NCBI GenBank assembly: GCA_040220235.1
Contig: JAVJTO010000133.1
Reading direction: 5' to 3' (one strand)
Length of the DNA stretch: 50,706 nt
DNA from: Coleofasciculus sp. B1-GNL1-01
GTDB taxonomy: Bacteria > Cyanobacteriota > Cyanobacteriia > Cyanobacteriales > Coleofasciculaceae
Shown here: piece by piece, positions 2,959-42,263 of the stretch
Position numbering within the stretch: the first letter of the stretch is position 1
How the letters are laid out: every line of letters begins with the position of its first letter
Made by a program: the position numbers and the translations under genes
Notes under the pieces: model-generated
Database searches by the model: none
What the model was told of the DNA's origin: nothing
The model's input: the letters and a program-made list of their open reading frames with translations, nothing else

Positions 2959-2966
2959 TCGATTGG

Positions 2967-3014
2967 GCGGTTGAAACCGCAGCTACACAAACGAAACCCG
3001 CCTGCGCGGGTTTC
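2967..3014. repeat. Double-hairpin dispersed repeat, possible terminator after argZ
   Basis: GCGGTT-GA-AACCGC and GAAACCCGC-CTGC-GCGGGTTTC inverted repeats. Confidence 0.6.
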
Positions 3015-3039
3015 CACAGCCCTAGAGAACTGATGAAGA

Positions 3040-25799: not shown

Positions 25800-25856
25800 T
25801 TGTCATTAGTCATTTGTCATTTGTCATTTGTCATTTGTCATTTGTCATTTGTCATT
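25788..25856. repeat. Heptamer tandem repeat overlapping the AAA-CHASE2 start
   Basis: (gtcattt)n, about 10 units. Confidence 0.9.
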
Positions 25857-25947
25857 TATCATTATTTGTCATTGATCATCTAACCCTAAACATAAAACCC
25901 AACTCCATCTCCAACCCCCTAAAACCTGTCCCCCATCCACTCACCCC

Positions 25948-25990
25948 CTCTGCGTTCCTCTGCGTAAACCTCTGCGTTCCTCTGCGTTAA
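25948..25990. repeat. (CCTCTGCG)-based dispersed repeat
   Basis: CTCTGCGTTCCTCTGCGTAAACCTCTGCGTTCCTCTGCGTTAA. A second copy lies near 36136-36180. Confidence 0.8.
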
Positions 25991-26033
25991 AAAAACATAA
26001 ACTCTCTCCCCACAACATCAAATAAAACAATCC

Positions 26034-27359
26034 CTAACCCCCCGATTCAATCCGACTCTTAAAATACCGACGAAACAACTCATAACGAGGACTAACGCCA
26101 TCCCCTTCCCACCGAACCAACCCCAAATTCTCCAAAACATCCGCCACCTCCAGATTCAATCTCACCGGATGATTAACACCAACAACCTGATAAAACGCCG
26201 CCACCAACTCCGGTGATTGATGTAACTTTTGTCCATACATCAGCAAATAATCCCGATAAACTCCCCTAGGAGTCGCCGCCGTTACCAACACCTCCTCCAA
26301 TGTCACCAACTTTTGTCCAATTTGCTTCATCGCCTCTTGCACCAAATAAGGCTGTCCCCCCACCATCGCCATTAACCGATTCACCTGATCAATTTGCCAA
26401 TCCAATCCATAATCTTGCGCCAACGCTTGCACCTGTTCCCGACTCAATTCCGGTAACGCGATCGGAAGCCCCGTATTAAACGGCGACTGATTAATATCCA
26501 GTTCGCGATAATCTTCCGTATACACTAAAACCTGGCGCAACTTACCCCAAATTGGGCGCGTTTTTGCATCCTCATGTCGCGTTCGTAGCATCCCTAAAAA
26601 CTCCCCCGCGACTTCCGGATAAGGAAAAATTCGATCCACTTCATCTAACCCCAAAACCAGGGAACTACCTCCCGGTAACAGATGCTTTTCAAAATACGTC
26701 TTACACTTATTCTTACTATTGCCAATACTCTTATTCCAATGTTCAGCAACTGGATTGTCTGATAATGATTCTTGGTTCAGACTCAGCGTCACACTGGTAC
26801 AGAACCATTGCAGAAATCGATTCAAATCTTGAAAATCCGTCGCCGTTGCATCCCGCAGATTCAAACTCACGACGCGATAACCCTGATCCGCCGCATAATT
26901 CAACACCCGTGACATCAACTCCGTTTTCCCCATCTTCCACGGCGCTTTAATCCGCAGTAAACATCCCGGCTTCAGGATTTCCTGGTAACAGGTAGACAGA
27001 ATCCCCGGTTCAATATAACGATCTTGACAGAGAATCGCACGGGAATCTGTCTCTGGATTCCTCAGTTGTTCTCCATGCTGCTGATATCGCACATACTCCT
27101 GTCTTAACCAGTCTCGTAAGCGCTTAAATTTCCCCTTTTTCTCCGTATTCAGCGCCGGACAAGAATGGGCAAATGTCGCATAAATTCGCCCCATTCGCCG
27201 TTGCAGTGTCACTTCACTGATATGCAACTTGTCAGCAATTTTGGCATCAAGTTCTGCCAAATTTCGTTCCGCAAAGCGGCAAAACAACACCTGTCTCTCA
27301 TCGGCATCAAATATACCCTGATAATCCGCAATTTGTTGTAAAAATGTATCCCACGACAT
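26034..27359 (-). CDS. HTH + AAA_35 ATPase protein (putative regulator)
   Basis: N-terminal LuxR/sigma4-like IADKLHISEVTLQRRMGRIYATF; KAPWKMGKT, LVLGLDEVD, QSPFNTG and GGQPYLVQ. Confidence 0.85.
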   Translation of the reverse strand: MSWDTFLQQIADYQGIFDADERQVLFCRFAERNLAELDAKIADKLHISEVTLQRRMGRIYATFAHSCPALNTEKKGKFKRLRDWLRQEYVRYQQHGEQLRNPETDSRAILCQDRYIEPGILSTCYQEILKPGCLLRIKAPWKMGKTELMSRVLNYAADQGYRVVSLNLRDATATDFQDLNRFLQWFCTSVTLSLNQESLSDNPVAEHWNKSIGNSKNKCKTYFEKHLLPGGSSLVLGLDEVDRIFPYPEVAGEFLGMLRTRHEDAKTRPIWGKLRQVLVYTEDYRELDINQSPFNTGLPIALPELSREQVQALAQDYGLDWQIDQVNRLMAMVGGQPYLVQEAMKQIGQKLVTLEEVLVTAATPRGVYRDYLLMYGQKLHQSPELVAAFYQVVGVNHPVRLNLEVADVLENLGLVRWEGDGVSPRYELFRRYFKSRIESGG

Positions 27360-27533
27360 AAACAGCTATAGGTATTCAATAGTAAGCAAAATTGTAGGGG
27401 CGCAGGTTGTGCGTCCAGAAAATCGCCAAAATCTATTCCACTAGACTATCATTTATAATCCAATGATTAAAATGAACGTAGCTTGAGTCAGCGATGCGAA
27501 CCTTTATAGCGAAGACAGCGCAACGCTTAACGA

Positions 27534-27663
27534 ATAAGCTGTTCGGTATTTAAACCTTAATATCAATAATGGCGCAATCCTTGCCGTAGTGCGTTTAGCG
27601 AAGCCATGCCGCAGGCTTTGCATCTTGCTCGCTAATACCCAATTTCAATGCATGACCGCTTAT
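27534..27663. mobile_element. Degenerate MITE-like element
   Basis: Imperfect terminal inverted repeats ATAAGCTGTTCGGTATTTAAA / TTTCAATGCATGACCGCTTAT. Confidence 0.45.
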
Positions 27664-27676
27664 TTTTGGCTAATAT

Positions 27677-27716
27677 TGATACCTTCTGATGGCTTGTGAT
27701 ACCTTTTGATACCTTT
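27677..27716. promoter_or_regulatory. Four 10-bp-phased direct repeats, putative operator
   Basis: TGATACCTTC TGATGGCTTG TGATACCTTT TGATACCTTT in the divergent promoter region. The repeat is directly visible; its function is inferred. Confidence 0.55.
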
Positions 27717-27870
27717 TCAACAAACCCTCACAATCCTATCTGATAGCTAGCTGTGGGTTCAGATGCAAAATAAACCGATTTAATAGAGTTATAAGCAAAG
27801 CACAACCATCTGATCAATCAGACTATTTTACAGTTATCTCAACTCTCTCAGAATTCTCAGGAGTACGATT

Positions 27871-29580
27871 ATGCTGAAATTCAAGCCCATTCTTTCTTTT
27901 ACCGTAGTCGGACTATCTCTCAGTCTACTCAGTAGTAGTAAAGTATTAGCCTTTAGCTTCAACTTTAGCCCGATCGCAGAAACTAGCAGTTCATTCAGTT
28001 CCTTTAGCAGCCTCGGATCAGGACTCGGTACTGCAGGTGGGAATAGCGGCTATAAGTTATCTAATGATGCCGACTATCAAAACGGCAAAGGACTGGCAAT
28101 TAACAATAATGGGCAAGTCGTCTTTTTTGCCGAACTCACGTCAGGAGACCAAGGAATCTATGTTGGTACTGGCGTAGGGGGATCAAAAATCATTGTTGAT
28201 AACAAAGCCGACTCTATATTTAGCAGTTTTGGTCAGGGGTTAGCCCTCAATAATGATGGTACTGTCGCCTTTTTTGCTGATGTAGATGCTGGAGGTCAAG
28301 GCATCTTTACTAGCAACGGTGTCAGGAACACGCAACAAATTGCCCACACGAGTGGAACCTATAGTAACTTTGCCCCTGGACTGGCGATTAACGACAGTGG
28401 CACTGTAGCCTTTTTTGCCAATCTTGATAATGGTGGACAAGAAATCTTTACCAGTGACGGCAATAAAACCATCCAAATTACCAACTGTACAGGTGCTGGC
28501 TCATCTGAGCAACAATGTCCTCTGTCCAGTGTAAACCTTGATCCTCTTGCACCTGACATTAATAATCAGGGAATGGTTAGCTTTGTCAGTCACTACGGTG
28601 TCTTTACAGGGGATGAGAATGGCAACTATCTAATTGTTGCTGATCAAACTAACTTTTGGAATGGTTCATATCGGGAAGCCAATATAAATGACCAAGGCGA
28701 AGTCTCAGCGTTTGCTCATAATAATGGCGCGGGACAAGTCATTTTTAAGGCGGATGGCATTAATGGTGAACTGATTGCCGGGAATAATTATGAGCAGTCA
28801 GAAACACCAGATACATTCTATAATGTTGGCACCAGTTCTATCAATAATAAAGGACTTGTCGCGTTTATGGCGAATCAGGTCGTTGAAGGGTCTAGCCCCT
28901 TTAGCAACCAGGATAAAGGTATCTTTGTGGGTAGTAATGCGGTCGAGGATAAAGTTATTGGCATTGGCGATACCTTATTCGGTTCCACTGTACTTGATTT
29001 AGACATGGATCGGCAAAGCCTGAGTGATGATAATGAAATTGTCTTCTGGGCAAAACTGGAAGATGGTACTGAGGGAATTTACCGCGCCAATAACATCGCT
29101 GACTCCCAATTTAATCCTTTGCTTCCTGATAGTACCTTGGATGGAGTGTTCCGATTTATTGATGTGATTGGCGGCAAATGGTACGATCCACCTTCCGCCT
29201 ATGGCTTCCACTATGAAATGACCGGGGATTCTTTATTTACCTCAATTCTGAACTTCCCGGTTGGCTTTGAAAATCCCTTCACGGTATCTGTAGGAGATAC
29301 AAATCTGGGTGAATTTCTACCCGGAGACAGTATCGATTTTGTCTCGCTTTTGGGTGGTGGTGTTTCTGAGTTTACGATTACCGGACTCAATGTTGATCCC
29401 ACCAATCCTACAGCGTTCCCAATTAAACTTGACTTTGATACAGATACGGCGAGTTTCGATATGCACGCACTCATAGAGGAAGACAGTCAGGACGTACCTG
29501 AACCCGTTTCTGTATTCAGTTTGTTGACCTTGGGTTCAGGTGTTGTATTACTGCGTAGACGGAAATCAAGGCAGCTGTAG
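27871..29580 (+). CDS. PEP-CTERM surface protein with NxxGxVAF repeats
   Basis: Signal peptide, repeated (I/L)N(N/D)xGxVAF motifs, and C-terminal VPEP + TM + RRRK. Confidence 0.92.
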   Translation: MLKFKPILSFTVVGLSLSLLSSSKVLAFSFNFSPIAETSSSFSSFSSLGSGLGTAGGNSGYKLSNDADYQNGKGLAINNNGQVVFFAELTSGDQGIYVGTGVGGSKIIVDNKADSIFSSFGQGLALNNDGTVAFFADVDAGGQGIFTSNGVRNTQQIAHTSGTYSNFAPGLAINDSGTVAFFANLDNGGQEIFTSDGNKTIQITNCTGAGSSEQQCPLSSVNLDPLAPDINNQGMVSFVSHYGVFTGDENGNYLIVADQTNFWNGSYREANINDQGEVSAFAHNNGAGQVIFKADGINGELIAGNNYEQSETPDTFYNVGTSSINNKGLVAFMANQVVEGSSPFSNQDKGIFVGSNAVEDKVIGIGDTLFGSTVLDLDMDRQSLSDDNEIVFWAKLEDGTEGIYRANNIADSQFNPLLPDSTLDGVFRFIDVIGGKWYDPPSAYGFHYEMTGDSLFTSILNFPVGFENPFTVSVGDTNLGEFLPGDSIDFVSLLGGGVSEFTITGLNVDPTNPTAFPIKLDFDTDTASFDMHALIEEDSQDVPEPVSVFSLLTLGSGVVLLRRRKSRQL

Positions 29581-29620
29581 GGGTGGGTTTTACAACTATC
29601 TTATCGGTTGCACCCAGATG

Positions 29621-29727
29621 TATAGCACTACGCATTAAGGTTAGGACAATACAATTGGGTGAAAAGGCAACAGGCAACAGGCAATAGGCAACAGGGGAAT
29701 GTCCTAACGTATCCCCGTAGGGCTATA
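29621..29727. mobile_element. MITE inserted inside a REP doublet (29577-29743)
   Basis: Inverted ends TATAGCACTACG...GTTAGGACA / TGTCCTAAC...CGTAGGGCTATA with internal AGGCAA(C/T) heptamers. REP arms lie on both sides. Confidence 0.75.
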
Positions 29728-29857
29728 ACTAAACCCGCCCCTGCTAGTAGGGTGCAGCATACCAGTCAGTAACATTGATCTATACCGATTGAATCTTGGC
29801 TAGAGTAAAGGCACAAACAAATAACCAACAAAAGCTAAAAACTTGAAGGAGAAAACA

Positions 29858-30778
29858 ATGTTGAACTATACCGCAAAACTTTCTATTTCTGCTCCAATCA
29901 TCCCTATCGCCACCGTATGTGGTTTGCTATTTGCCACAGGCGAATCCGCTCAAGCTGCTACGTTTGCTCTCAATGAAGATACGACGGTTGATACGTTTAC
30001 CGAATGTGTCAACGATGGTATTGCCCTCAAAGTTGGCAAAAATCCCGTTGATGAATCAGGATGGCACTATGCGATTGATTCATTTGATGATGGCGTGGAT
30101 GGAACACAAGTTGGTGGGGATGGTAATCCCTATGAAATTTACAGTTTAGCGCTTAAAGAAACAGAGGATAGCCTTTTTGTGGCGATTAATGCCAATATGC
30201 CGTTAACAGGTGTTGATGGAACCAGTGCTGATGATAGAAATATTGGTTGGGGAGATTTGTTCTTCAATTTTACCGATCAAGATTTCACCACGGCGAATAA
30301 TCAAGGAGATTTATTCGGAGTACGTTTTGCCGGAACTAATGATTCCTTAGTCCCTAATCTGGGTCTTTATGGCAATGTCACCGCTATTAGTACCACAGAT
30401 ATTAATAGTGGATTTGATAGCCTAGAAGCTTACAACCAACGAGTGAGCGATTTTTGTCAAGGTGCTGACTGTGGTCCGAGTCTGGGGGATTTACCTGCTG
30501 ATACCTCTTATTTTGACCAATCTCAAAGCTTAAATACAATTGGTTCGGGTGAATTTCTCACCAGTCTTATGTATCTGTCTGAGTCTGAATTACTGGCGGC
30601 TGGCTATGACTTGAATCGCTTTGATGGGGAACATACGATCGCGTTCAAGTTCGATAAATCAGGGATTTGCGATCGCGGCTATTGTACATCCGTCCCTGAA
30701 CCCTCTGCTGGCGTGGGTTTAGCCGCCCTCGGCTTAATGGTTGGTGTCAATCATCTCCGCAAGCGTTACTCAGCTTGA
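29858..30778 (+). CDS. PEP-CTERM exosortase-dependent surface protein (XDD3-like)
   Basis: Signal peptide (AQAA), WHYAIDSFDDG, YEIYSLA, IGWGDLFFNF, and C-terminal VPEPS + TM + RKR. Confidence 0.88.
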   Translation: MLNYTAKLSISAPIIPIATVCGLLFATGESAQAATFALNEDTTVDTFTECVNDGIALKVGKNPVDESGWHYAIDSFDDGVDGTQVGGDGNPYEIYSLALKETEDSLFVAINANMPLTGVDGTSADDRNIGWGDLFFNFTDQDFTTANNQGDLFGVRFAGTNDSLVPNLGLYGNVTAISTTDINSGFDSLEAYNQRVSDFCQGADCGPSLGDLPADTSYFDQSQSLNTIGSGEFLTSLMYLSESELLAAGYDLNRFDGEHTIAFKFDKSGICDRGYCTSVPEPSAGVGLAALGLMVGVNHLRKRYSA

Positions 30779-31205
30779 AAACCCGGTGTCGCCAAGGTTA
30801 AAGCTATTGGCAGATGACGTGCGATCGCCAAGCGTGTCCGCCGGACGTATCGCGACTTCACTCATTGCTTAAATGTTCAACATTTTCCATCTGTCAATAG
30901 CCAGGTTTGGGAGCAGGTTTTATGGCAACCTCAAGACGAATTCAAACCTTATCTATCGCTATAATTGAAGTAGTTAGTGCTGGAGTCAATACAGTCCATA
31001 TTCCGCAACTAACACCAACTATTTTCAGTCCAAGCACACCGTTGAATTTTCAGCGTGAGACGGAACAGACAGCCAATCAACCCGCTCGGAATATTTGCCC
31101 ATCTCGCCCGACTCTCCCCTGTGCAGAAAGACCCCGATAGATAAGAAAGGAATAGGAAACAGGAAAGGTAAGGGACAAAGCTTTACAGACTAAAACCCGA
31201 TTTTC

Positions 31206-31221
31206 TGTATTTTTTACTACA
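31206..31221. promoter_or_regulatory. Possible NtcA site
   Basis: TGTA-TTTTTTAC-TACA fits GTA-N8-TAC, but there is no canonical -10 box 22 nt away. Confidence 0.3.
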
Positions 31222-31394
31222 TTTTTGCCGGAATTTGATCCGGGTTGTCCAAGCTGGCGATCCAGTGAATACAGAGTTGGTGATTAACTTTGTAAAGATT
31301 TGTTTCAAAATCCTGACTATGTGCGTAAAGGGGAGGAATGAACCCAGAGTGATAATTAGAAAGTCAATTCACTGTCAACCAATCCAGGAAACTT

Positions 31395-31619
31395 ATGTGG
31401 AACATCATTTTCAGCGGATTAATCCTCTTTTACTTAGTCATGTTACCGCTTTTGTTCACACGATGGCTAGGCTTTTTGCAACGTGAGGAAAACCTCTCTC
31501 CCCAAAGCCGATTTCACTCGCTCATGTTCTTACTCATCGCCGCTCTTCTTTGGCCCCTAGTCGTACCCATCTCCTACCTAGAACTATTAGATCGCCAAGA
31601 ACAGCTTCAGAATTTTTGA
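31395..31619 (+). CDS. Small two-TM hypothetical protein
   Basis: Two hydrophobic segments and a WPLVVPISYLELL motif. Confidence 0.75.
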   Translation: MWNIIFSGLILFYLVMLPLLFTRWLGFLQREENLSPQSRFHSLMFLLIAALLWPLVVPISYLELLDRQEQLQNF

Positions 31620-31702
31620 GCAACCGGAGTATCACCTTTATTTCTGACACCGCATTAATTAGTATTACATCTCAAGTTATCTGAACTGAAGGAACAAGTC
31701 CA

Positions 31703-32401
31703 ATGACTGCATTTACCCTCAACCCAAATCGTTGCGATGAAAACTATATCCATCAGCCATCACTCTTCAATAATCAGATATTAATTTTCTCGCTTCATCC
31801 TTCAACCTATTCCCTTTCTAAACGCTGCATTGATATTATGGGGTCTCTAATCGGACTTCTGATTTTAGGAATTCTTTTTCTCCCTATCGCCATTGCCATA
31901 AAACTCGATAGTCCTGGTAAGATTTTCTATAGTCAAACCCGCCACGGGCTTTACGGCAAACCCTTCAAAATTTGGAAATTTCGCTCAATGATTTCCCAAG
32001 CGGACACCCTCAAATCCCAAATTCCCAATCAAGTCCAAGGACACCTATTTAAGAATGACAATGACCCCCGCATCACTCCTGTGGGGCGTTTTCTGCGCGG
32101 AACTAGCTTAGACGAATTTCCGCAATTTTGGAACGTTTTAATCGGAGACATGAGTTTAGTTGGCACTCGTCCGCCCACCCCAGATGAAGTAATCTACTAT
32201 AACCTCAAGCATTGGCAGCGATTAAACGTAAAACCGGGGATCACAGGCGAATGGCAAGTCAACGGGCGCTCGCAGGTACAGGATTTTGAGGCGGTGGTTG
32301 CTCTTGATTTAAACTATCAGAAACAATGGCATCCTGGGTATGATTTAATGATTATTTGGAAAACAATTTCCGTTGTTTTTACCCGACTCGGTGCTTGTTA
32401 A
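31703..32401 (+). CDS. Sugar transferase (polyprenyl-phosphate glycosylphosphotransferase, Bac_transf)
   Basis: KRCIDI, KFRSM, NDPRIT.VGRFLR.TSLDEFPQFWNVL.GDMSLVG and KPGITG.WQVNGR. Confidence 0.93.
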   Translation: MTAFTLNPNRCDENYIHQPSLFNNQILIFSLHPSTYSLSKRCIDIMGSLIGLLILGILFLPIAIAIKLDSPGKIFYSQTRHGLYGKPFKIWKFRSMISQADTLKSQIPNQVQGHLFKNDNDPRITPVGRFLRGTSLDEFPQFWNVLIGDMSLVGTRPPTPDEVIYYNLKHWQRLNVKPGITGEWQVNGRSQVQDFEAVVALDLNYQKQWHPGYDLMIIWKTISVVFTRLGAC

Positions 32402-32453
32402 TAAACAGAAGACTGTAGGATTCCAGCGCCATGGCACGTCTGACAACCCAGTT

Positions 32454-32519
32454 GTAGGGGCGGGTTTTACAGATAACATTTTGCCACCCATTAATAACTT
32501 AACTAAACCCGCCCCCTAC
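32454..32519. repeat. REP doublet that supplies the ThiF stop codon
   Basis: GTAGGGGCGGGTTT...AAACCCGCCCCCTAC; the stop is at 32516-32518. Confidence 0.85.
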
Positions 32520-33154
32520 GGATTCAAAGGCTTAACCGCTAAATCGGCTAACGTAATCGTGAAATTTTGTTGCTTTTCAGTAGCGACAAAGGTAATAATT
32601 ACCTCACAAGCAACCGCCACCGCCAGCATAACTAAATTTCGCGCTAAGGGATAATCACAAATATCATCATTGGCAGGTGAGGGAACGCGATAATGATCGT
32701 TCCAAATGATCTCTGCATAATCACTTGCCAATCCCACATGCAAACAGGGAATCTGCACCTGTTGACAATAATCTTTCACCGCTTGACGGGCGACACTATT
32801 GTCAAAGGTATCAATGACTACCTGACTATCCCGAAGTAATTGAGAACAGTTGTCCGCCGTTAGTTCTTTGGCACGCCCATCGACAGTAATACCTAATGCA
32901 CGATAGAGCGTATTTGTCAATATCTTAGTTTTATAAGCACCAACATCTGATTTGTAATAGGGTTGAGTAGAAAGATTGCGTTCCTCGATGCGATCGCGAT
33001 CGATTACCCGTAACCTGCTAAACCCAGAACGCGCCAGGTTTTCGGTCAGATTTGCCCCCAGCGCCCCAGCCCCACATACAGTTACCGGAAACTCCTGCAA
33101 CCGTGTCATTAGGGTAGGTGTTCGATAGAGGTTTTCGTGAAAGAAAATAGACAT
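32516..33154 (-). CDS. ThiF/E1-like adenylyltransferase (minimal)
   Basis: VCGAGALG, IDRDRIEERNLSTQ, K and DTFDN motifs. No CxxC zinc pairs; one DDICDYP cysteine near the C-terminus. Confidence 0.9.
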   Translation of the reverse strand: MSIFFHENLYRTPTLMTRLQEFPVTVCGAGALGANLTENLARSGFSRLRVIDRDRIEERNLSTQPYYKSDVGAYKTKILTNTLYRALGITVDGRAKELTADNCSQLLRDSQVVIDTFDNSVARQAVKDYCQQVQIPCLHVGLASDYAEIIWNDHYRVPSPANDDICDYPLARNLVMLAVAVACEVIITFVATEKQQNFTITLADLAVKPLNP

Positions 33155-33239
33155 TATCTATAAAATTGGGCAATCACCGCGTTCGCGAAGCGTGTCCACC
33201 GGACGTATCGCGACATAACCAATGACTCGATTGAAACAA

Positions 33240-33461
33240 CTAACCGTTCTCAATGACTTTAACAAAGCCATGTCGCACCCCATAGATTAATCGAGTCACC
33301 GCCTCCTCATGATCGGAGGTAAAGGCATTATCCAGCGGTGTGATCAGCAATTCGTACCAGTCAGAATGACTGATTTGACCCTTTTTCATACTTTGAGCAA
33401 AGAGTTGACTAAAGTCAAAGGAGTTACTGAATTTTCTCTGGTGAGCTTTTTTGGTCAGCAT
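33240..33461 (-). CDS. Small hypothetical protein
   Basis: 73 aa with purine-rich RBS. The SQLFAQ...GQIS..D.Y.L...RLIYGVRHGFVKVI pattern resembles a small cyanobacterial family. Confidence 0.7.
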   Translation of the reverse strand: MLTKKAHQRKFSNSFDFSQLFAQSMKKGQISHSDWYELLITPLDNAFTSDHEEAVTRLIYGVRHGFVKVIENG

Positions 33462-33700
33462 CTTATGTCTCTCTCTGTATTGAATAGAGATTGTGGTAGA
33501 CGATAACTAGATTGTAGTCAAGATTCAGGGATAGTTTCTTGAAATCTTCGTAAAGAAATGTTGGTCAGTAGGGGGAGAAAATTAAAGTTGATGGTTGAGA
33601 TGGGAAACGGGGAACAGAGAACAGTCAGAATTTGACGCTTGTTTACATTTCTTAGTGCAGGGGACAGCAATGAAGATGATTCGATTACTGGACTGCTGTT

Positions 33701-34600
33701 CTAGAATCGGGCTTCGATCACACCAACCAGGGATTGTAAATCAAAGTCGCGATCGCAACCACTTAGACAGATTCCCGAACTCATCACGGTTAAATCCCCC
33801 TTCGCGATCGCAGAAGTATGACGTTCCCCATCACGAGTCGTCCATTCCACTTGCCAAAACTCGCCGCGATCGCGAAATGTCCGCAATCTCCCACCTCCCA
33901 TCTGTAACGCATCCCGCAACCGTTGTTCATCCGTTCGCTCAGCTCCCCCAGCTCCCCCAGCTCCCCCAGCTCCCTCTGCTTCTCTCGCTTGACGCCGATG
34001 GTGTTCTCGCTGCTGATACGCAGGTGTTTGTTGCAATACCAACTCATAAACCGTCCGCATTTCTGGTGTCATTCCCGTAAACCGCACCTGATCCGCTAGA
34101 GTAACCTGTTCTAACTGTTCTCGTAACTGTTCAGTCGGTTGAGGTTCAGCGCGTCTGTCGATTTCATCAAACCAAAACGCTGTACCATCAAAACGGGCAA
34201 TAATCGGCTCAAATGCAGCACCTTCGCTAACCAAATGGACAGGAACAGGCTTAACCATACCCAAACGTTGCTGCATATCCGACTCATTAATGGGATACGC
34301 CAACCACGTCAATGAACGCAATGGATAAGCTAATCGTAAGCGCAGAGGTTTAAGTAATTTCAGATACTCCGCTAATTGAGGTAAACTCGCTTCTTCTACT
34401 ACCTCAGCCGTTTTCTCATCCACAGGACGAAAAATACCCCACCCCTCAAAATCACTTGGTTGGGGGGTAAAGGTATAAATCAGATTCGCCACTGACGTGC
34501 GAACGTTTCCCCCTTGAACACAAGGGGCAAGAAACTCGGTATCCTGAAGTTGGGTTTCTTGGGCGGCTATTTCATTGAGGAGGTTATCAATATCTGCCAT
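33701..34600 (-). CDS. Hypothetical protein associated with ThiF
   Basis: 299-aa ORF with FLAPC, FEGWGIF and C-terminal SSGICLSG..RDFDLQSLVGVIE. In-frame 9-bp repeat linker at 33940-33982. Confidence 0.85.
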   Translation of the reverse strand: MADIDNLLNEIAAQETQLQDTEFLAPCVQGGNVRTSVANLIYTFTPQPSDFEGWGIFRPVDEKTAEVVEEASLPQLAEYLKLLKPLRLRLAYPLRSLTWLAYPINESDMQQRLGMVKPVPVHLVSEGAAFEPIIARFDGTAFWFDEIDRRAEPQPTEQLREQLEQVTLADQVRFTGMTPEMRTVYELVLQQTPAYQQREHHRRQAREAEGAGGAGGAGGAERTDEQRLRDALQMGGGRLRTFRDRGEFWQVEWTTRDGERHTSAIAKGDLTVMSSGICLSGCDRDFDLQSLVGVIEARF

Positions 34601-34727
34601 TATCAGTTATCAGTTATCAGGTGTCAGTTATACAGCGTTTTCAAATGAGATGTGTATCTAGATTGTCTGTGCTTTGCTTTCAAAAAAAACTCTCTATCTC
34701 TTTCCCCTATTGCCTATTGCCTATTGC

Positions 34728-35987
34728 CTATTGCCTCACTATAGTTTGATATGCCTCAATCATAGTCTGCGCGATCGCATCCCAACTATAATGCTCTAGT
34801 GCATAGTCTCTAGCATTGACTCCACGCCGCTTTTGTTCCCCAGCATCCCTTAGCGCTTCCCGTAAGGTTTGAGTCAACGACGCCACATCACACCCACAAA
34901 TCCATCCTGCTTCCGCCTCCTTCACCTCTGGGCAAATATGCACCTGATCCGAAATTACCACAGGAGTCCCCGCCACCATCGCTTCAGCGACAGCAATGCC
35001 AAAATTTTCATAATAAGAGGGTAAAACAAATAGATCCGCCTTTTGTAGCAACGCCGCTTTTACTTCTCCCTCAACAAACCCTGTAATTGTCGTCTGAGAC
35101 GATAGCGACGACGCCCGAATCTGTTGTTGAATTTGACGTTCATACTCTGGATCTTGGGGATTCGCGCCCGCTAAGATAAACTGAAACCCTAACCCTTCAG
35201 CCAAAAGCGTTTCTAAAGCCGGAATCAGTAAATCCAATCCTTTCTTCGGATCAATTCGAGACATAAATAATAGGATTGGGGATTGGGTAGAGACATTCTC
35301 TAGAACATCTGTAGGGGCGGGTTTAGGGACTTTTGTTTCACCATTGATGATATCGTTTGTGCAAAACCCGCCCTGACGTAGAGACGTTGCATGCAACATC
35401 CCTACATCCTCCGGAGGCGTCACCCCCAAAGGAATCACAATATCCCGCGCATCTGTACCAAACCGTTGAGAAATCTTCGCCTCTTGTTCACTGGTAAAAT
35501 GAATTCCCGCCGCCCCCGCTAAATTAGCACGTTCCCATAAACCCACATAAACTTGTTTTAATCGTCGCTTCTTCTGTAAATCCGCCGGATCAAGCGTACC
35601 CAAGGGACGCAAAATATAGGGTAAATTTCGTTTTCGGGCGACTGTTGCGGCGGCAGTACTCACGGGTGAAAACAGGGCGTGAATATGCGCCAGATCAAAC
35701 TCCCCTGCATGTTGCCACAACCAACGTAATAAATCGAGGGAAAACTTATAACGACGGAACGGAGAACACCGGAAATATCGCACCTGATAACCATCCTGGG
35801 GAACAGGTTTATCTAAAGGAACATCCAGTGGTGGTTGACCAAAATCCCCATTACTATCGGTCGTCAATATCGTAACATCTACACCCTGATTTGCTAGCGC
35901 TTTAGAAAGCCCCAGCACCATTTGACTCGGACCCCCATAAACCAGCGAAATTGAAGGGACAATTTGTAAAATTCGCATTTTTTTCAT
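34728..35987 (-). CDS. hpsP: GT4 glycosyltransferase, hormogonium polysaccharide HpsP
   Basis: MRILQIVPSISLVYGGPSQMV, SRIDPKKG and ENFGIAVAEAM; last gene of the hps cluster. Start may be 35978. Confidence 0.85.
   Translation of the reverse strand: MKKMRILQIVPSISLVYGGPSQMVLGLSKALANQGVDVTILTTDSNGDFGQPPLDVPLDKPVPQDGYQVRYFRCSPFRRYKFSLDLLRWLWQHAGEFDLAHIHALFSPVSTAAATVARKRNLPYILRPLGTLDPADLQKKRRLKQVYVGLWERANLAGAAGIHFTSEQEAKISQRFGTDARDIVIPLGVTPPEDVGMLHATSLRQGGFCTNDIINGETKVPKPAPTDVLENVSTQSPILLFMSRIDPKKGLDLLIPALETLLAEGLGFQFILAGANPQDPEYERQIQQQIRASSLSSQTTITGFVEGEVKAALLQKADLFVLPSYYENFGIAVAEAMVAGTPVVISDQVHICPEVKEAEAGWICGCDVASLTQTLREALRDAGEQKRRGVNARDYALEHYSWDAIAQTMIEAYQTIVRQ
35287..35405. repeat. Composite REP insertion in frame within hpsP
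   Basis: GTAGAGACATT..., the 64-bp doublet at 35311-35374, and GTAGAGACGTTGCATGCAACATCCCTAC. Confidence 0.85.
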
Positions 35988-36205
35988 TTGTCATTCGTCA
36001 TTCGTCATTCGTCATTTGTCATTCGTCATTCATCATTCATCATTTGTCATACTCACTCCCTTCAAAAGAAAGCTACGTCATATCATCACCAATTATTTCC
36101 AAACCCTATAAAAATAAACTCCCCCTGCTTTAACCCCTCTGCGTCCTCTGCGTAAACCTCTGCGCCCCTCTGCGTTAAAAAATATAATTCCGATTCCCCG
36201 ACTTA

Positions 36206-37375
36206 TCATTCAATAAGTCTTTGATAAAAATCAAACAACTTCCGCGCCAAAGCCTTATTCGTATACTGGTTCATTGCCCGTTCATACCCCAACCCAGCCA
36301 ACTGCTTCGCCAACTCCGGCTGTTCCATCAGCGATACCAACTTGCCACGTAACCCTTCTACATTCCCCTCCGGAAACACCAAACCCGCATCACCAATCAC
36401 ATTCGGAATTTCCCCCGAATCCGACCCAATCACAGGCACTTTCGATGCCATCGCTTCAATTAAAACATGACCAAACTGTTCCTTCCATCCCGCCGCAGTT
36501 AACGTTTTAAACTTGTACGTCGTCTCAGATGGCAAGACTAAAACATTCATCAAATTAATATAATTTGGCACTTCGTCATGAGGAACACTCTCCACCCAAA
36601 TCATCCGGTCTTTAATTCCCCATTCCACCGCCTTTTCCATTAACACAGTTTGCAGAGAACCGCGTCCTAGCAACAACCACTTCCAGGGATAATCCTTAAT
36701 ACCTGCCAAGGCTTCCCCTAGGGTTAATAACCCTTTCTCCTCAACAAACCGCCCCACAAATCCGACAACAAATTCATCCTCTTGAAGTCCTAACTTTCGT
36801 TGTAACTCTGGCTGGGTTTGGGGGCGAAATCGGCTTTCATCCACACCTAATTGAGGCATAACGGTATAAGCCCCCTGATAACCATGTTGCTGGAGTACTT
36901 CCACCGCATCCTGATTTCCTGCAACCAGTCCGTGAGTATTCTGAAGGTTATAGTCGTGCAATATCGATAAAGGAAACTTAACCTGATAGGGTAAATTCCA
37001 CCAAGTAAAGAAAACATTTTTTGCCTTGAGTCTTAAAAGTTGATTCAATGCGATGAATTGAGCATAACCTAATGCCTTTGCGCCTTGTTCAACTTGAATG
37101 ATATGGGGTTTAAAGTCTCGCAATAAGGGAAGAATATCTGCGCCAAATGTGAGTAATCCCTGGTTGTTTTGGCTAAAGTTCGAGACAGGGACAACTCGAA
37201 ATGAACCCTCTTGACGCGGTTTGGTTTCAATAATTTTATTTTGTACCCCCCCTGGACGCCAGCGACGGGGTACGACTACGGTGACTTCAATATCAGGTTC
37301 TAATTTCGCGAGTTCGCGTAGCTTTTCGCAGTTAAGATCAACAATATAGGTATGACTGGCAACTAGAATTTTCAT
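36206..37375 (-). CDS. hpsO: GT4 glycosyltransferase HpsO
   Basis: MKILVASHTYIVDLNCEKL, GRFVEEKG and WKEQFGHVLIEAM. Confidence 0.85.
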   Translation of the reverse strand: MKILVASHTYIVDLNCEKLRELAKLEPDIEVTVVVPRRWRPGGVQNKIIETKPRQEGSFRVVPVSNFSQNNQGLLTFGADILPLLRDFKPHIIQVEQGAKALGYAQFIALNQLLRLKAKNVFFTWWNLPYQVKFPLSILHDYNLQNTHGLVAGNQDAVEVLQQHGYQGAYTVMPQLGVDESRFRPQTQPELQRKLGLQEDEFVVGFVGRFVEEKGLLTLGEALAGIKDYPWKWLLLGRGSLQTVLMEKAVEWGIKDRMIWVESVPHDEVPNYINLMNVLVLPSETTYKFKTLTAAGWKEQFGHVLIEAMASKVPVIGSDSGEIPNVIGDAGLVFPEGNVEGLRGKLVSLMEQPELAKQLAGLGYERAMNQYTNKALARKLFDFYQRLIE

Positions 37376-37441
37376 TTTTTTAGAGGGAATAGAGAAGATA
37401 AGGGAGATGGGGTAGATAGGGAGTTATCTTAACACTGAGTT

Positions 37442-37505
37442 AGGGCGGGTTTTGTACCAAGGTTACTATCAATCGCGACACGAGAGTCCCTAAACCCGCC
37501 CCTAC
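37442..37505. repeat. REP doublet
   Basis: AGGGCGGGTTTT-38 nt-AAACCCGCCCCTAC. Confidence 0.85.
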
Positions 37506-37549
37506 AAATCATGCCAATTGAATGTCGCGAAGGGTCAAAACGTCCCCAA

Positions 37550-38542
37550 TCAACCATCAGCTTTTTCATCCAACTGGGTATAAACTTGCCCCTGATCCCA
37601 ACTGGACTTGATTTGAGTTTTCAGGGCGTCGATAAATCCGATAGTGTAGAACCCTGCACGAGTGACAATTTTAATTGGCGAACCACTCTTGTTACAGGGA
37701 GGATTTCCGAGAACGTGACAATCAAAAAGCTTGGCAAATAAGCGCACCTGCTGACTGGGGGTAAGGTTCTTCAGCGCCATCAGGAAATGATTGTGGTAAA
37801 ACGTGACTTGGTATTTAAGCGATCGCGTACTAATATCGTGACAACCACCCGTCTCTTCGCCTAAATGCACCAAAGAGGCATCGGGATCATACCAAATCTG
37901 ATACCCCGTTTGCCGCAATCGCAGACAAAAATCTGACTCTTCCCGTACCGCACTCCCGCGAAATCGTTCATCAAACCATATCCCATGCTTGGTAAAAATC
38001 TCCCGACGGTAGGACATATTACAGCCTCTAGCGGAAATCACCCACTGCGGTTTAATCGTATGCACTAGGTCAATGTGATACCAAGCAATTCCAGGGTCCA
38101 TCGCCTGAGGGGGCAAATTCTCGATTTCATACTCTCCTTGATGTTTTTTCTGAGAATCGGCTAGCTTCATGCGGTCAAACACTCGCCCCGCAACCGCCCC
38201 AACCTCCTGACGTTCATAGTTACGGGCGTGGGCTTGCAAATACCCAGCAGGCATTTTCACATCATCATCGATAAACACAATAATTTCGCCTGTCGCCCGT
38301 CGCACGGCATAATTTCGCGCCCCAGGTAAACTCGCCCAGTTCACCCGAAACCATTTAACTTTCTGCTCATTCGCCAATTGTTGTAAATAAGTTTCGATTT
38401 CAGGCTTGTGGTTTTGCGTTTGATCTACCACTAAAATTTCAACAGCAGGATAGTCTTGCTTGAGTACATCGTCTAAGGTATCTCGCAAGGGTTCCTCGCG
38501 TTCGTAAGTAGGAATAATGACTGAAATTAACGGCTCATTCAC
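37550..38542 (-). CDS. hpsN: GT2 glycosyltransferase HpsN
   Basis: ISVIIPTY, PGARN, FIDDD, GCNMS and REESDFCLR; GTG start. Confidence 0.83.
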   Translation of the reverse strand: MNEPLISVIIPTYEREEPLRDTLDDVLKQDYPAVEILVVDQTQNHKPEIETYLQQLANEQKVKWFRVNWASLPGARNYAVRRATGEIIVFIDDDVKMPAGYLQAHARNYERQEVGAVAGRVFDRMKLADSQKKHQGEYEIENLPPQAMDPGIAWYHIDLVHTIKPQWVISARGCNMSYRREIFTKHGIWFDERFRGSAVREESDFCLRLRQTGYQIWYDPDASLVHLGEETGGCHDISTRSLKYQVTFYHNHFLMALKNLTPSQQVRLFAKLFDCHVLGNPPCNKSGSPIKIVTRAGFYTIGFIDALKTQIKSSWDQGQVYTQLDEKADG

Positions 38543-38702
38543 GACTGTTTTTTGAAAATGGTGATTGTTGATAGTTCATTGTTCATTGCTAATCCTCTCC
38601 CCCAGCTCCCAGACGTAGCATGCTACGTCTCTACATGGCTTTCCCCGCTACCCCATCATCCCATCACCCCCTCACCCCCTCATCCCCTCATCCCCTCATC
38701 CA

Positions 38703-40397
38703 CTAAGAGGCTGCTGGGGTAGCAATTCGTGGTTTAGATACCTTTTTTTTACCGTTCTTTTGTACGTCAGATTCATCCTGTTGTTCGACAAGTTTCTGTT
38801 TTCGCAGTTCCTGTCGGTCTATCTTGGGTAAGGCTAGGATTACCCCTGCAAAGAACCAGTAATAGACCGCTACGGGGTCTGTATCCAAAGGATACCAATA
38901 GGTGTTATAACTGATAATCAACACAAAAACCCAATAACTAGAGCCAAAACTACGTAAATTTTTGTCACGCACTGACTGTTTGGCTTTAAATGTAGTAAAT
39001 GTCAAGTGCGTCACAAACGCCAAAAATGCTAAGGTTCCGATGGTACCGACTTCAAAGATAAGTTTGGGATAATAGGTTTCAACCAGTGAAACATCCCCAA
39101 AGGTGCGAGTAGAATTCGTGGCTCGTCCTAAACCATTACCGAGCCATCCCTTGGTGTTATAAGTTGCCCATTCAAATTGTTCTTGAATGAATGCTTGCGG
39201 TGGTGAAGCCTCGGCACGACTCTTAAAACTGTCAATTCGTTCCTGAACCAGTTCTGGATTCATGGCTAAGCCAATTGCAATCACCAAGCCGAGTCCCACG
39301 CCTATTGGAAGAAACCGCTTGAGATTCGTTATCTGACCTGTAAGGATTAACAAAAGTATCGTAATAGCTGGAACTAAAGCTAAAGCAATTCGCTGACCGC
39401 AGATTACCGCATTAACAAAAACCAGTGCCATACCTGCCAAACCTCCAATCCGCCACAAAAAAGACGAATCGCTAAATGCGGCGGCAAATGTCAATGCGCT
39501 ATTGCCTATCAAGAACCAACCCCAGTGCCAAGGAGACACAAAGGTTCCTGGCAAGCGAATCATATTTTGTGATGGACTGTACAGCAACGCCCCACCAATA
39601 TAACACCGAGCTTCTAAGCTAGCTTTAAATAATTCAACCCCGGAGAGGTGATCCGTACCTTTACAGACACCCTGCTTTAGCATCATGTATTGCCACAGCC
39701 CTAGGAGACAGCAAATAATTGCCAGACCTAGATGCAAGCGGCTACAAAATAACAACTCTTTTTTACTTTTGAGCAAATGTTGGGCGCAAAAAATCAGGGG
39801 AACATATCCTAGGAAAATTTTCAAGCCCAAAATTCCTTGAAGAAAAGGTTGTCCTGACGCATTGCCCGTCAAATGTAAACCGTTAACAAAGAATAATGTC
39901 AACAGAGAAAACCCCAAGCAAATACTCAGTGTTGACATTAGGGTTTGGGGAACAAAGAAGGGTTTCTTTTCGCGTCGGCACTGTTGATATAAGCCAATTA
40001 GGGCAGGAAAATATAATCCATCTTTGGCTAATTGGAGTAGGGCGCTACCGCCGAGGGTATATACAACCGTGCCGCTAAAGGGCATGTAAATGAGAAATAG
40101 CCACAGTGCCTTGCGGGGATATTTGTAGGACAGACCAAAACAGGGTATGATAGCTCCGGCGATCACACCCATCTTCGGTTCAGCCACTACACTCGCGATC
40201 GCCCCTAGGAATATCCCCGGCAATAGCGTCATGAACAGCCATTGAATCAGTTCTTGGCGCTGCTTTTTCGCTTTACGCTGTTGGGCTAACTGCTCCTTCA
40301 AACTCAGGAGAGGAGCTTCAGACTGCTTTGACTGCTTTTTTCCTTTTTTTGAAGTTTTCGATTTTTTGACTTTTGATTTCGATTTCGATTTAACCAT
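38703..40397 (-). CDS. hpsL: Hormogonium polysaccharide protein HpsL (Wzy/O-antigen ligase-like membrane protein)
   Basis: Lys-rich N-terminus with LSLKEQLAQ, many TM helices, RLPGTF and YYWFFAG; leads the GT cluster. Confidence 0.8.
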   Translation of the reverse strand: MVKSKSKSKVKKSKTSKKGKKQSKQSEAPLLSLKEQLAQQRKAKKQRQELIQWLFMTLLPGIFLGAIASVVAEPKMGVIAGAIIPCFGLSYKYPRKALWLFLIYMPFSGTVVYTLGGSALLQLAKDGLYFPALIGLYQQCRREKKPFFVPQTLMSTLSICLGFSLLTLFFVNGLHLTGNASGQPFLQGILGLKIFLGYVPLIFCAQHLLKSKKELLFCSRLHLGLAIICCLLGLWQYMMLKQGVCKGTDHLSGVELFKASLEARCYIGGALLYSPSQNMIRLPGTFVSPWHWGWFLIGNSALTFAAAFSDSSFLWRIGGLAGMALVFVNAVICGQRIALALVPAITILLLILTGQITNLKRFLPIGVGLGLVIAIGLAMNPELVQERIDSFKSRAEASPPQAFIQEQFEWATYNTKGWLGNGLGRATNSTRTFGDVSLVETYYPKLIFEVGTIGTLAFLAFVTHLTFTTFKAKQSVRDKNLRSFGSSYWVFVLIISYNTYWYPLDTDPVAVYYWFFAGVILALPKIDRQELRKQKLVEQQDESDVQKNGKKKVSKPRIATPAAS

Positions 40398-40471
40398 GGC
40401 AAAGCTGTCAGGCTGCCCGTTTCTTTCGATTGTGGCACATCCACCAGTGAAGGTGTAGGGGGAGGGAAGAT

Positions 40472-40576
40472 GGGAAAGCTGGGGAAGCAGAGGGAGCTGG
40501 GGGAGCTGGGGAAGCTGGGGGAGATGGGGAAGCTAGGGAAGCTAGGGAAGCTGGGGGAGCTGAGGAAGCTGGGGGA
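40472..40576. repeat. 9-bp tandem repeat (GGGGAAGCT)n
   Basis: About 11 degenerate units. Confidence 0.85.
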
Positions 40577-40639
40577 GAAAAAATTAAATTAGAGTTCCCC
40601 GTGAACAGTGTTCCCTCCTGCCTCCTCTCCTGCCTTCTT

Positions 40640-42106
40640 CTAACCCAAATGGTTTTCGACGACAGAAACCAGTTTAGCTGTCCAGTGCGTTGCCATTTGC
40701 GCTTCAATGGCTTCTACCATCACTCGGATGACGGGTTCGGTTCCCGATGCTCGGACTAAAACTCGCCCTTGATCTGCCATCACGGTTTGAGCTTGGGCGA
40801 TCGCATCCATTAGGGGTTGACAGTCTTGCCAATGTAAGCGGCGATCGCGGTTTTCGACGCGCACATTTTGTAATAGTTGGGGATAAGTCTGAAAGCTTTG
40901 ATCCACTAATGTTTTCAAGCCGACCCCCGACTGACGTACCAATGAGGCTAAATGCAAAGCCGTTAACATGCCATCGCCTGTCAAGCCGTAATGGTAACAA
41001 AGAATATGTCCAGACTGTTCACCACCAAGCATAGCTCCACTGCGATCCATTGCCGCTTGCACATATTGGTCACCCACAGCCGTGCGTACCAGTTTACCAC
41101 CACTGGCTTTCCATGCCCGTTCAAAGCCCAGATTTGCCATAACCGTGGCAACAATTAAATCATCGGGGAGTTGATTGGTTTGTCGTAATGTTTGCCCCCA
41201 GAAATAGAGAATATAATCGCCATCAACGACTCGACCTTCGCTATCAACCGCCATCACCCGATCCGCGTCACCATCGAAGGCAAACCCCATATCAGCCGAC
41301 TGTTCTCGTACCGCCTTCTGGAGACAGGCTAAATGAGTAGAGCCACAATTTACATTAATGCGATCGCCATCCGGTTGATTATGCAAACAGATAACTGTTG
41401 CTCCCAACTCAGAAAAGACTTGTTCGGCTAACTTCACCGAAGCCCCCCACGCCAAATCCAGGACAATTTTCATCCCCTGTAAATGGGTTACAGAGTGCAG
41501 GGGACGCCGTAATGATTCCAAATAACGTCCCACTAATTCCGGTCGGTGATAATGCTGACCCTGAGTATGAGTCACCACAGCCTTATCGACTAGACCTCGG
41601 ATACCTGCCTCAATCTGCTGCTGCAATTCCCCTGGCAGTTTTGTCCCTTGAGCGCTAAAAAACTTAATCCCATTATCTTCTGGGGGATTATGACTAGCAG
41701 AAATCATCACCCCACCCATCGCTTCTGAGAAACGGGTAAGATAGGCAACCCCAGGCGTGGGACATAACCCTAAATTCCAAACCTCCAATCCCGCTAAGTT
41801 TAAGCCTTTACTCAGCGCCGATGCCAACATATCACTAGAGTTTCGCGAGTCCTGTCCAACAATCACTGGACCCAATGCTGAGGCTTGCGAATGTAAGACC
41901 TGACCTGCCCAAAACCCAATTTGTAGCGCCAATTCAGCCGTAAGCAGTTCTCCCACTCGTCCCCGAATGCCATCCGTACCAAACAAGGGAGTCTTGGGCA
42001 AGGTTAGGGATAAATCCGTTAGCGTTCCATGGGTCGAAGATTTGTGTAGATGATGTCTAGGGGTAAACCGATGGATGTCCTGACGTCGGACAGGAGACGT
42101 AACCAT
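40640..42106 (-). CDS. glmM: Phosphoglucosamine mutase
   Basis: [29 protein letters not shown] and RASGTEP. Confidence 0.95.
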
Positions 42107-42171
42107 AACTTGAATTTCCTCACACAACACAATACTGTGGAGGATAACACTTTCTTCTATGGTTGTTATAA

Positions 42172-42257
42172 GTCATTCGTCATTCGTCATTCGTCCTCAG
42201 CTCCCCCAGCTCCCCCAGCTCCCTCTGCTCCCCCAGCTCCCTCTGCTCCCTCTGCTC
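42172..42257. repeat. Heptamer and 9-mer tandem repeats
   Basis: (gtcattc)3 followed by (agctccccc/tgctccctc)n. Confidence 0.85.
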
Positions 42258-42263
42258 CGCTGC

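Follow-up and report, generated by a model that had tools for sequence, protein, structure and literature searches.

In the UBA5-UFC1-UFM1 pathway, a minimal homodimeric activating enzyme (E1) and a small acceptor work with a ubiquitin-like protein (Ubl) that ends in one glycine after a hydrophobic residue, and the pathway is linked to stalled translation; UFC1 is a UBC-fold protein, and the UFM1 system is eukaryotic and needs a protein ligase (E3). Urm1-Uba4 and TtuB-TtuC-TtuA also consist of a ThiF-type E1 and a small Ubl, and are tied to transfer RNA (tRNA) biology. Bacterial Ubl conjugation, hitherto known from phage defence or with no function assigned to it, and the particles of Ro60 with Y RNAs, whose effectors are mostly unknown, have been separate lines of work. 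A locus of Coleofasciculus sp. B1-GNL1-01 would join these two lines. It lies in a stretch of 50,706 nucleotides (assembly GCA_040220235.1, contig JAVJTO010000133.1, here C133), called the window below, and encodes a protein of 299 residues, named X here, and a ThiF-family E1 of 212 residues. With a probability of about 0.6, a Ubl conjugation system that operates on a Ro60-type ribonucleoprotein during translation stress has X as its acceptor and E1 as its activating enzyme. This reading draws on direct observations of gene content, linkage, co-occurrence, residue conservation, RNA covariation and a promoter motif. Papers are cited by their PMC numbers, from the parts of their text that were available.

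X and E1 in the window

The two genes, with a third between them, had been picked out in an earlier note, written from the sequence alone, as a possible minimal module of an E1 and a conjugating enzyme (E2) with no thiamine, molybdopterin or sulfur-carrier gene nearby. All three co-oriented open reading frames (ORFs) were confirmed on the minus strand, X at 33701..34600, a 73-residue protein at 33240..33461 and E1 at 32516..33154, and no sulfur-carrier, thiamine or molybdenum cofactor gene was seen among the ORFs of positions 24000-43000, six of which were scanned against Pfam. X is present at its 299 residues, and its true C-terminus is SLVGVIEARF, three residues further than the end quoted in that note. 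The small gene fared differently as a member of the module: it occurs at 6/69 X loci, each of them from Coleofasciculus, and the same genome encodes two paralogs of it at other places, so we regard it as a genus-specific passenger. Its product, a small cyanobacterial protein, matched no family in Pfam, NCBIfam, PADLOC or PHROGs, and was rejected as a Ubl or partner because it is restricted to one genus and shows no terminal conservation across loci.

E1, a minimal stand-alone enzyme of the ThiF family with intact adenylation motifs, matched PF00899 above the cut-off (E 2.7e-27) and stood above none of the NCBIfam equivalog cut-offs among the matches listed (87 bits vs 159 for ThiF, 58 vs 449 for MoeB). 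In an alignment of 30 members, from which five near-identical Coleofasciculus copies were omitted, G28, G30, G33, D52, D54, R55, N60, Q64, K75, D118 and N119 were invariant (30/30), as was Cys166 (codon 32657..32659, minus strand), the cysteine of the crossover loop, whose aligned counterparts are the cysteine of PSCAEGG in the MoeZ of the host and that of ATCEGG in the subtype II E1 described below. The lack of CxxC pairs and the DDICDYP cysteine, both remarked on earlier, were confirmed in the 212-residue protein; the missing zinc CxxC pairs are not distinctive, since the host's ordinary MoeZ, encoded separately on contig C17, is also without them in the aligned stretch. UBA5 was matched at E 1.5e-8 through the shared ThiF domain, and the PADLOC E1-E2 models over the shared ThiF stretch only.

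X, the putative Ubl acceptor (E2-equivalent), belongs to a wide family, with 1476 matches among 8000 candidates and 729 representatives at 50% identity (E ≤ 0.001). No significant family match was obtained in Pfam, NCBIfam, PADLOC or PHROGs, and a sequence search of the PDB gave no match for X or for its C-terminal domain. Residue conservation was read from an alignment of 131 sequences of subtype I (the query, 10 close homologs and, after exclusion of partial sequences, 120 of the 150 representatives listed) and from 120 sequences of subtype II. Cys278 (codon 33767..33769, minus strand), the proposed thioester acceptor, was found in 128/131 and 120/120 of these, 248/251 for both; Gly276 was present in 248/251 and Asp283 in 245/251, and G276, C278 and L279 in 247-248/251. 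It is the sole conserved cysteine of X, and the alignment holds no second conserved cysteine/histidine set for metal binding. Both cysteines singled out in the earlier note are thus conserved. The motif around Cys278, S-A/S-G-I-C-L-x-G-x-D, lies between a four-strand meander and the final helix, so that the G-x-I-C-L cysteine motif followed by a helix, as in UBC E2s, is present in X.

The AlphaFold2 model of full X (mean pLDDT, the predicted confidence, 93) consists of an N-terminal helix, two OB-like barrels, a helical linker and a C-terminal alpha/beta domain that bears the invariant cysteine. Barrel 1 (residues ~20-72, 34385..34543, minus strand) has five strands in the model and is probably OB-like, its match to the OB-fold YuaF being weak (VIA Z 4.8, root-mean-square deviation (rmsd) 3.9, 70 aligned). 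Barrel 2 (residues ~82-155, 34136..34357, minus strand) resembled RNA-binding OB folds of ribosomal proteins and IF1/eIF1A with middling scores (VIA Z 5.0-5.7, rmsd 2-4, 55-75 aligned), and the best Foldseek rows for X were tandem S1 and cold-shock proteins, at E 1.4e-3 or weaker. The C-terminal domain (residues 224-299, 33704..33931, minus strand) is the most conserved part of the family. In the full model it runs helix, four strands, cysteine loop and helix 288-297, the order expected of a cut-down E2; modelled in isolation it was weaker, with a pLDDT of 72 and the last helix lost.

The earlier note took this domain for a divergent E2-like acceptor. An E2-like role of X is supported by the genetic context set out below; similarity to UBC profiles and an HPN motif did not appear. 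The segment before Cys278 reads D-L-T-V-x-S-A/S-G, with no HPN motif, and is ~20 residues shorter than in bacterial UBCs. Among the matches listed, the best structure rows of the domain were PepSY/PH/cystatin-like, with Z up to 6.5; no E2 family was among the listed matches (25 of 66 Pfam families) for the 131 X members, a search of a viral structure library returned low TM-score rows only, and the ESM Atlas gave no usable match for the domain. As a weak lead, chain 0 of the Mediator structure 7emf, which we take to be MED27, was matched to the domain at Z 4.9 and rmsd 4.0 over 76/79 residues, and unrelated rows cover nearly as much. MED27 is called an RWD domain in the available part of a preprint (10.1101/2021.03.11.435010).

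Ubl, TROVE-vWA and RNA genes that accompany X and E1

Linkage was surveyed at 69 X loci, many of which end close to X. In 34/69, X is followed by a gene of this E1 subfamily (51-96% identity), in records of cyanobacteria, Acidobacteria, Armatimonadetes and Planctomycetes, so that the linkage of X and ThiF proposed as a check in the earlier note extends to four phyla. X is present in all 31 cyanobacterial genomes with this E1 and lies within 600 bp of it in 25/31; the pairing is far more than chance.

Clustering of the neighbours of the X loci gave two further conserved genes, for proteins of 66 and of 480-500 residues, both found on contig C35 of the Coleofasciculus genome. The former, called Ubl here (37034-36837, 66 residues), ends in AVYG (RPEAVYG). 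A C-terminal glycine, in AVYG, was found in 120/120 homologs among the matches listed (of 1887), the ending AVYG/AIYG recurs in 80/80 metagenome loci, and distant members end in AVFG and VPFG. Ubl had no match in Pfam, NCBIfam, the PDB or the named part of the ESM Atlas, which gave unnamed clusters only, and four listed UniRef records carry the automatic names 'Ubiquitin-like domain' or 'TGS domain'. The larger protein (493 residues, 35177-33699 of C35) is best read, from its sequence, as a divergent Ro60/Rsr. VWA_2 was matched by 15/19 members and vWA_Ro60 by 4/19, the D-K-S-x-S-M of the vWA metal-binding site (MIDAS) is invariant, and the best PDB match of the family profile was a TROVE protein of 500 residues (E 0.0014 over 250 residues); Pfam TROVE (PF05731) was not matched by the members. 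This PDB entry would be the phage Ro60 of PMC12135203. The VWA/TROVE-like neighbour that the earlier note had mentioned is real, as a putative Ro60-like TROVE-vWA protein in related loci and on C35.

The Ubl-TROVE operon of C35 also holds a second gene for ribosomal protein L7/L12 (35518-35940; L070:9515-9940), likewise present in L077, L078, L081 and six metagenome loci, and copies of EF-Tu were seen in L072 and L081. A gene for a protein of ~240 residues separates Ubl from TROVE in 11 loci from genomes and 23 from metagenomes. This protein is one of four recurrent accessory proteins (~240, 152, 265 and 66 residues; L077:5848-6567, L089:6123-6578, L052:3944-4738 and L136:291-488), none of which matched Pfam or NCBIfam.

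Co-occurrence was counted in one set of 301 cyanobacterial genomes, with the E1 subfamily called at E ≤ 1e-30. X was found in 35, Ubl in 31, TROVE-vWA in 34 and E1 in 31. The 5' box of the RNAs described below was found in 32, namely the 31 with Ubl and one other (reversed pattern, 0), and in 31/34 TROVE genomes. The complete set of five was present in 29 genomes, 264 had no part of it, and the other 8 had partial sets, four of them with fragmentary genes. In G143, G243, G295, G297, G189 and G151, broken or partial copies of at least one gene were seen, which suggests frequent loss of the system. Whole operons, found in Acidobacteria, Armatimonadetes, cyanobacteria and two viral contigs, have the order Ubl, RNAs, TROVE, X and E1. 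The two viral contigs (L106 and L107, putatively viral, 122 and 37 kb) carry all four protein genes, and L107 also a JAB gene and 13 tRNA-like genes. The idea of a minimal module of two to three genes was accordingly not borne out; the system has five or six parts.

When 201 genomes from the phylum of L063, the Planctomycete locus, were searched with a profile, 6 gave a match, and the three weak matches represent a second subtype. In L195 and L196 this subtype II comprises, in this order, a TROVE-like vWA protein, an X homolog (X'), a JAB-like gene, a small protein ending in RPKVPFG and an E1 of 195 residues, and the short contig L197 holds the last four of these genes; the JAB call in L195-L197 was made by eye from an AHSHP motif. 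X' gave 188 matches, many named Myxococcus, Corallococcus, Pyxidicoccus or Cystobacter. Aligned with hhalign, the two subtypes of X gave 99.4% for the C-terminal domain and 91.5% for the N-terminal part, the N-terminal halves being ~19% identical. A JAB gene adjoins X in the subtype I loci L063, L069 and L107 as well. As the Ubl of L107 and that of the L063 genome already end in glycine, JAB is favoured to remove the conjugate rather than to mature Ubl, which speaks for reversible conjugation.

Between the Ubl and TROVE genes of C35 lie five Y-RNA-like genes with a common closing stem (35283-36631, minus strand; L070:9238-10642). The RNAs encoded in this position are not ordinary tRNAs, their 5' box pairing with a 3' box. 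ARAGORN labels two of the five tRNA-Tyr and tRNA-Leu, and it reported tRNA-like genes in 28/34 loci, with arrays of 27-32 in three; copies elsewhere were called tRNA-Pyl, tRNA-Stop or unknown, which would mislead annotation. A regular expression for the 5' box found 251 in 104/182 loci and none in the reversed sequence; 213 had a 3' box and 38 were without one by the pattern used. Of the inserts, 89 were tRNA-like with the arms in canonical order and 11 were permuted; 49 had just a T arm, 61 were short or of another kind, and 3 were like ribosomal RNA (rRNA). The main class has D, anticodon and T arms in canonical order and a five-pair acceptor-like helix without a CCA end. For 43 canonical copies (the first 45 listed, with two longer ones removed), 97.1% of alignment cells were paired and 19/35 pairs showed a compensatory change, a result reached by 0/500 shuffles. 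Rfam YrlA (RF02553) was not matched, at 17.4 bits vs a cut-off of 69, and the Rsr-binding motif GNCGAA is absent, the 5' box of these RNAs being different.

A looser search gave 21 rRNA-type copies (17 by pattern), some from near-identical loci. Inside the same frame they carry first what we take to be the sarcin-ricin loop sequence and then the GTPase-associated centre of 23S rRNA; Rfam assigned the piece to positions 1093-1148 of large-subunit rRNA (E 1.7e-12). Genes of this type lie at L075:4556-4760 and L081:12433-12632, and also in L025, L034, L072 and others; in many cases they immediately precede Tpt1/KptA or X, or are part of a tRNA array. The exact pattern found no sarcin-ricin-type RNA in the viral contigs.

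The Ubl promoter of the Coleofasciculus genome (C35:37503) consists of TTGACA, 17 bases and TAGTAT; two TGTAGTAT repeats overlap its -10 box. Such a TGTAGTAT site is bound by the translation-stress repressor TrcR, according to the available text of PMC10272220 and PMC8421152. A loose TrcR 7-mer lies within 700 bp upstream of 19/30 Ubl genes, compared with 4/81 X genes and 0/47 E1 genes, and upstream of 46/57 metagenome Ubl genes. A 13-gene tRNA array on contig C100 of the same genome (978-9155) also stands behind a TrcR-type promoter; its neighbours are DUF6847-like and TIGR02452-like by appearance, and it includes an extra 5' box, in an element apparently cut beside a transposase fragment.

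Across the loci, the neighbours include RtcB, RtcA, Tpt1, NADAR, Nudix, a DEDD exonuclease, a CCA-adding enzyme, EF-Tu, the second L7/L12 and HNH, and long tRNA arrays lie near loci of the system. Contig C89 of the Coleofasciculus genome holds a Tpt1/KptA gene and a gene for a 401-residue AAA ATPase (1941-3726; L071), a pair that precedes X in L007, L016, L033 and L034 and is probably another displaced piece of the island. In the window, X and E1 are flanked by a sugar transferase and a glycosyltransferase operon. The promoter scan of the window gave 6 sites vs 4.1 expected, so the promoter-like site just upstream of X carries no weight, and RNA runs contained just 6-11% of the words of the stretch, which gives no evidence of expression. 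Farther along, 27871-30778 encodes two secreted proteins, presumably of PEP-CTERM type from their C-terminal motif, and the two products of 23490-27359 look AAA-like, one being an apparent ATPase with a fused CHASE2-like region and the other having what resembles a helix-turn-helix in its N-terminal part.

Proposed relay and alternative explanations

In the proposed relay, E1 would adenylate the terminal glycine of Ubl and hold it as a thioester on Cys166, as its motifs suggest, and Ubl would then be transferred to Cys278 of X. By the precedent of Ro60 and Y RNAs, the TROVE ring would bind the conserved closing stem of the RNAs and so display their tRNA- or ribosome-shaped inserts. In the weakest step, X may dock on this particle through its OB barrels and join Ubl to proteins that engage the bait, the candidate targets being elongation factors, tRNA enzymes and nucleases that cut tRNA or rRNA, with the RNA in the role of an E3 adaptor. 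Where present, JAB would take the tag off. From the sequence evidence, the thioester relay from E1 to X is likely, while the choice of protein targets on the RNA-Ro60 platform is put somewhat below even odds. Strict co-inheritance with a Ro60-like ring and with RNAs that present varied protein-recognition surfaces on a common handle suggests recruitment of the target by the particle. The most specific form of this proposal, RNA-guided ubiquitination, is offered tentatively, at slightly lower odds again: the Ro60-like ring would load interchangeable baits (mimics of tRNA, of the sarcin-ricin loop and of the GTPase centre), and the acceptor, an OB-fold protein with a remote relation to E2s or none, would tag the protein that takes the bait. 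If true, RNA would replace the E3 ligase and target choice would be reprogrammable.

Several observations weigh against the conjugation reading. Comparison of X with UBC folds and profiles, proposed in the earlier note, did not yield an E2: no chain described as such was among the 50 Foldseek and VIA-align matches listed for the C-terminal domain, which may still leave room for a reduced UBC/RWD fold, and hhalign of X against 14 bacterial UBC (UQ_con) domains gave 0.2-0.7%. The comparison set was made up of canonical UBC-domain proteins from L092-L101; within the phylum sample, one family, non-photosynthetic or basal, had such proteins in 8/8 genomes. A by-eye fit of the domain to UBC that left out the HPN flap was rejected, as it failed the gap-tolerant profile controls; the score of 13.1 was reached by 13/150 shuffles and 17/38 unrelated windows, and the reversed profile scored higher. 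The OB assignments of X depend on middling scores from model comparisons, and the TROVE assignment likewise has middling sequence scores. For Ubl, the putative beta-grasp fold is proposed from size, pattern, terminal glycine and automatic UniRef names, and hhalign against the host's three GG-ending carriers gave 8.7% at best. As for the loci, JAB is absent from the cyanobacterial ones examined, no TrcR site lies upstream of X or E1 in the window, and X and E1 of this genome lie apart from the Ubl operon (C133 vs C35). The same genome is without a sarcin-ricin-type RNA by the 5' box pattern, none of the five C35 copies being of rRNA type. Finally, the co-occurrence counts are not independent, as the 301 genomes are related (one genus contributes 10, with 18-20 genera in all).

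The alternative that survives best, although we think it unlikely, is that Ubl is joined to RNA. The OB barrels would place the end of a damaged tRNA or rRNA threaded through the ring, and an ester with its hydroxyl would mark it for repair or decay. The presence of two OB-like barrels on the acceptor itself would suit this, as would the end-repair neighbours (RtcB, RtcA, Tpt1 and the CCA enzyme) and the action of Ro60 rings in RNA quality control (PMC12135203). It leaves unexplained, however, the varied protein-recognition surfaces of the RNAs, that is, anticodon arms, sarcin-ricin loop and GTPase centre, and the bacterial pathways characterised in the available text of PMC11601603 tag proteins.

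Ranked just behind it, and also unlikely, is a sulfur relay of Urm1/TtuB/ThiS type, in which E1 would adenylate Ubl, Cys278 of X would carry a persulfide and a thiocarboxylate on Ubl would serve to thiolate tRNA or the Y-like RNAs. In its favour, E1 belongs to the small ThiF/MoeB type, tRNA arrays are nearby, and JAB peptidases also accompany sulfur carriers (PMC1779556). Among 92 neighbour ORFs from 17 loci, however, no rhodanese, cysteine desulfurase or PP-loop thiouridylase was found, a gap that a housekeeping donor may fill in trans; structure searches gave no rhodanese-like fold match for X, and GG-ending carriers and MoeZ exist separately in the host.

The earlier note leaned towards E1/E2-type defence, and an anti-phage system like Bil, with Ubl placed on phage proteins and RNAs that sense or soak up phage-triggered nucleases, has its own support in the patchy distribution (35/301 genomes, with decaying copies), in the transposases and toxin-antitoxin genes among the neighbours and in the antiviral action of the Bil and CBASS E1/E2 systems, as far as the available literature describes it. 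Yet X matches no PADLOC model, the promoter motif ties the Ubl operon to the TrcR translation-stress regulon, the neighbours are RNA-repair and translation genes, and two viral contigs carry the whole set. The context is thus one of translation stress and RNA repair more than of classical phage defence, and we rate the latter as rather improbable, even if an anti-phage role and the proposed conjugation system are not mutually exclusive. That X is a non-catalytic RNA-binding adaptor with a structural Cys278, E1 alone conjugating or merely adenylating Ubl, would agree with the lack of an E2 among the listed fold rows, with a gap-tolerant UBC test at control level and with the E2-independent conjugation reported for Urm1 (PMC9574740), but is very improbable, as a lone cysteine kept in 248/251 over subtypes ~19% identical N-terminally, with no metal-binding set, is more like a catalytic residue.

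Comparison with known systems

No publication describing the combined system was found by title or start of abstract in the searches made, and the available parts of PMC7159879, PMC1779556, PMC7824862, PMC8421152 and PMC11601603 do not mention it. The chance that surveys of RNA repair and E1 proteins from the Aravind group already list the neighbourhood of protein genes is roughly one in three, and lower for the RNAs. This appears to be an undescribed bacterial Ubl conjugation system, and there is a fair chance that it represents a new kind, RNA-guided tagging. It would bring a candidate acceptor family that is new and shows no detectable homology to UBC, a scaffold of non-coding RNA that is absent from Rfam and whose copies are mis-called tRNAs (apparent stop-codon and pyrrolysine tRNAs), and an apparent small-RNA copy of the ribosome's factor-binding site. 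Should the RNA select the target, it would be a natural RNA-programmed device for protein tagging. The parts are small and soluble-looking, which makes the central claim accessible with three purified proteins and ATP.

With UBA5-UFC1-UFM1, homology was compared for the shared ThiF domain only. Unlike Urm1 and TtuB, the system has no rhodanese domain on its E1, no GG end on its Ubl and no thiouridylase among the 92 neighbour ORFs. The TrcR regulon and the cryptic tRNA L-arrays of Anabaena PCC 7120 share with it the TGTAGTAT repeats over the -10 box and neighbourhoods with an HNH gene, rtcB and tRNA arrays (PMC10272220, PMC8421152); TROVE, ThiF and ubiquitin go unmentioned in the available text of both papers, although the unnamed hypothetical genes in Figure 6 of PMC8421152 may include genes of the system. 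The closest RNA counterpart is Rsr/Ro60 with its Y RNAs (YrlA, Yrn1 and the rtcB operons), where a TROVE-vWA gene and tRNA-like RNAs lie on the same strand within 2 kb, the 5' and 3' ends of the RNAs pair in a long stem, and RtcB/RtcA are nearby (PMC4201824). In contrast to Rsr and YrlA, the RNAs studied here are without the GNCGAA 5' box and some of their inserts imitate 23S rRNA, and a Ubl relay, rather than polynucleotide phosphorylase, seems to act as the effector.

The protein side is closest to Bil (types I and II), Bub and the Cap2/Cap3 pair of CBASS, which share the crossover-loop E1, the separate acceptor, the single-glycine Ubl and JAB. Non-canonical bacterial E2s also end early, without the C-terminal helix pair of UBC (PMC11601596), and TROVE, vWA and OB-fold are not mentioned in the available text of PMC11601603 or PMC1779556. 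Unlike the acceptors of these systems, X has no detectable UBC homology and no PADLOC or NCBIfam match, and it carries two OB-like barrels; and, unlike in any of them, the partner here is a Ro60-like protein with non-coding RNAs behind a translation-stress-type promoter.

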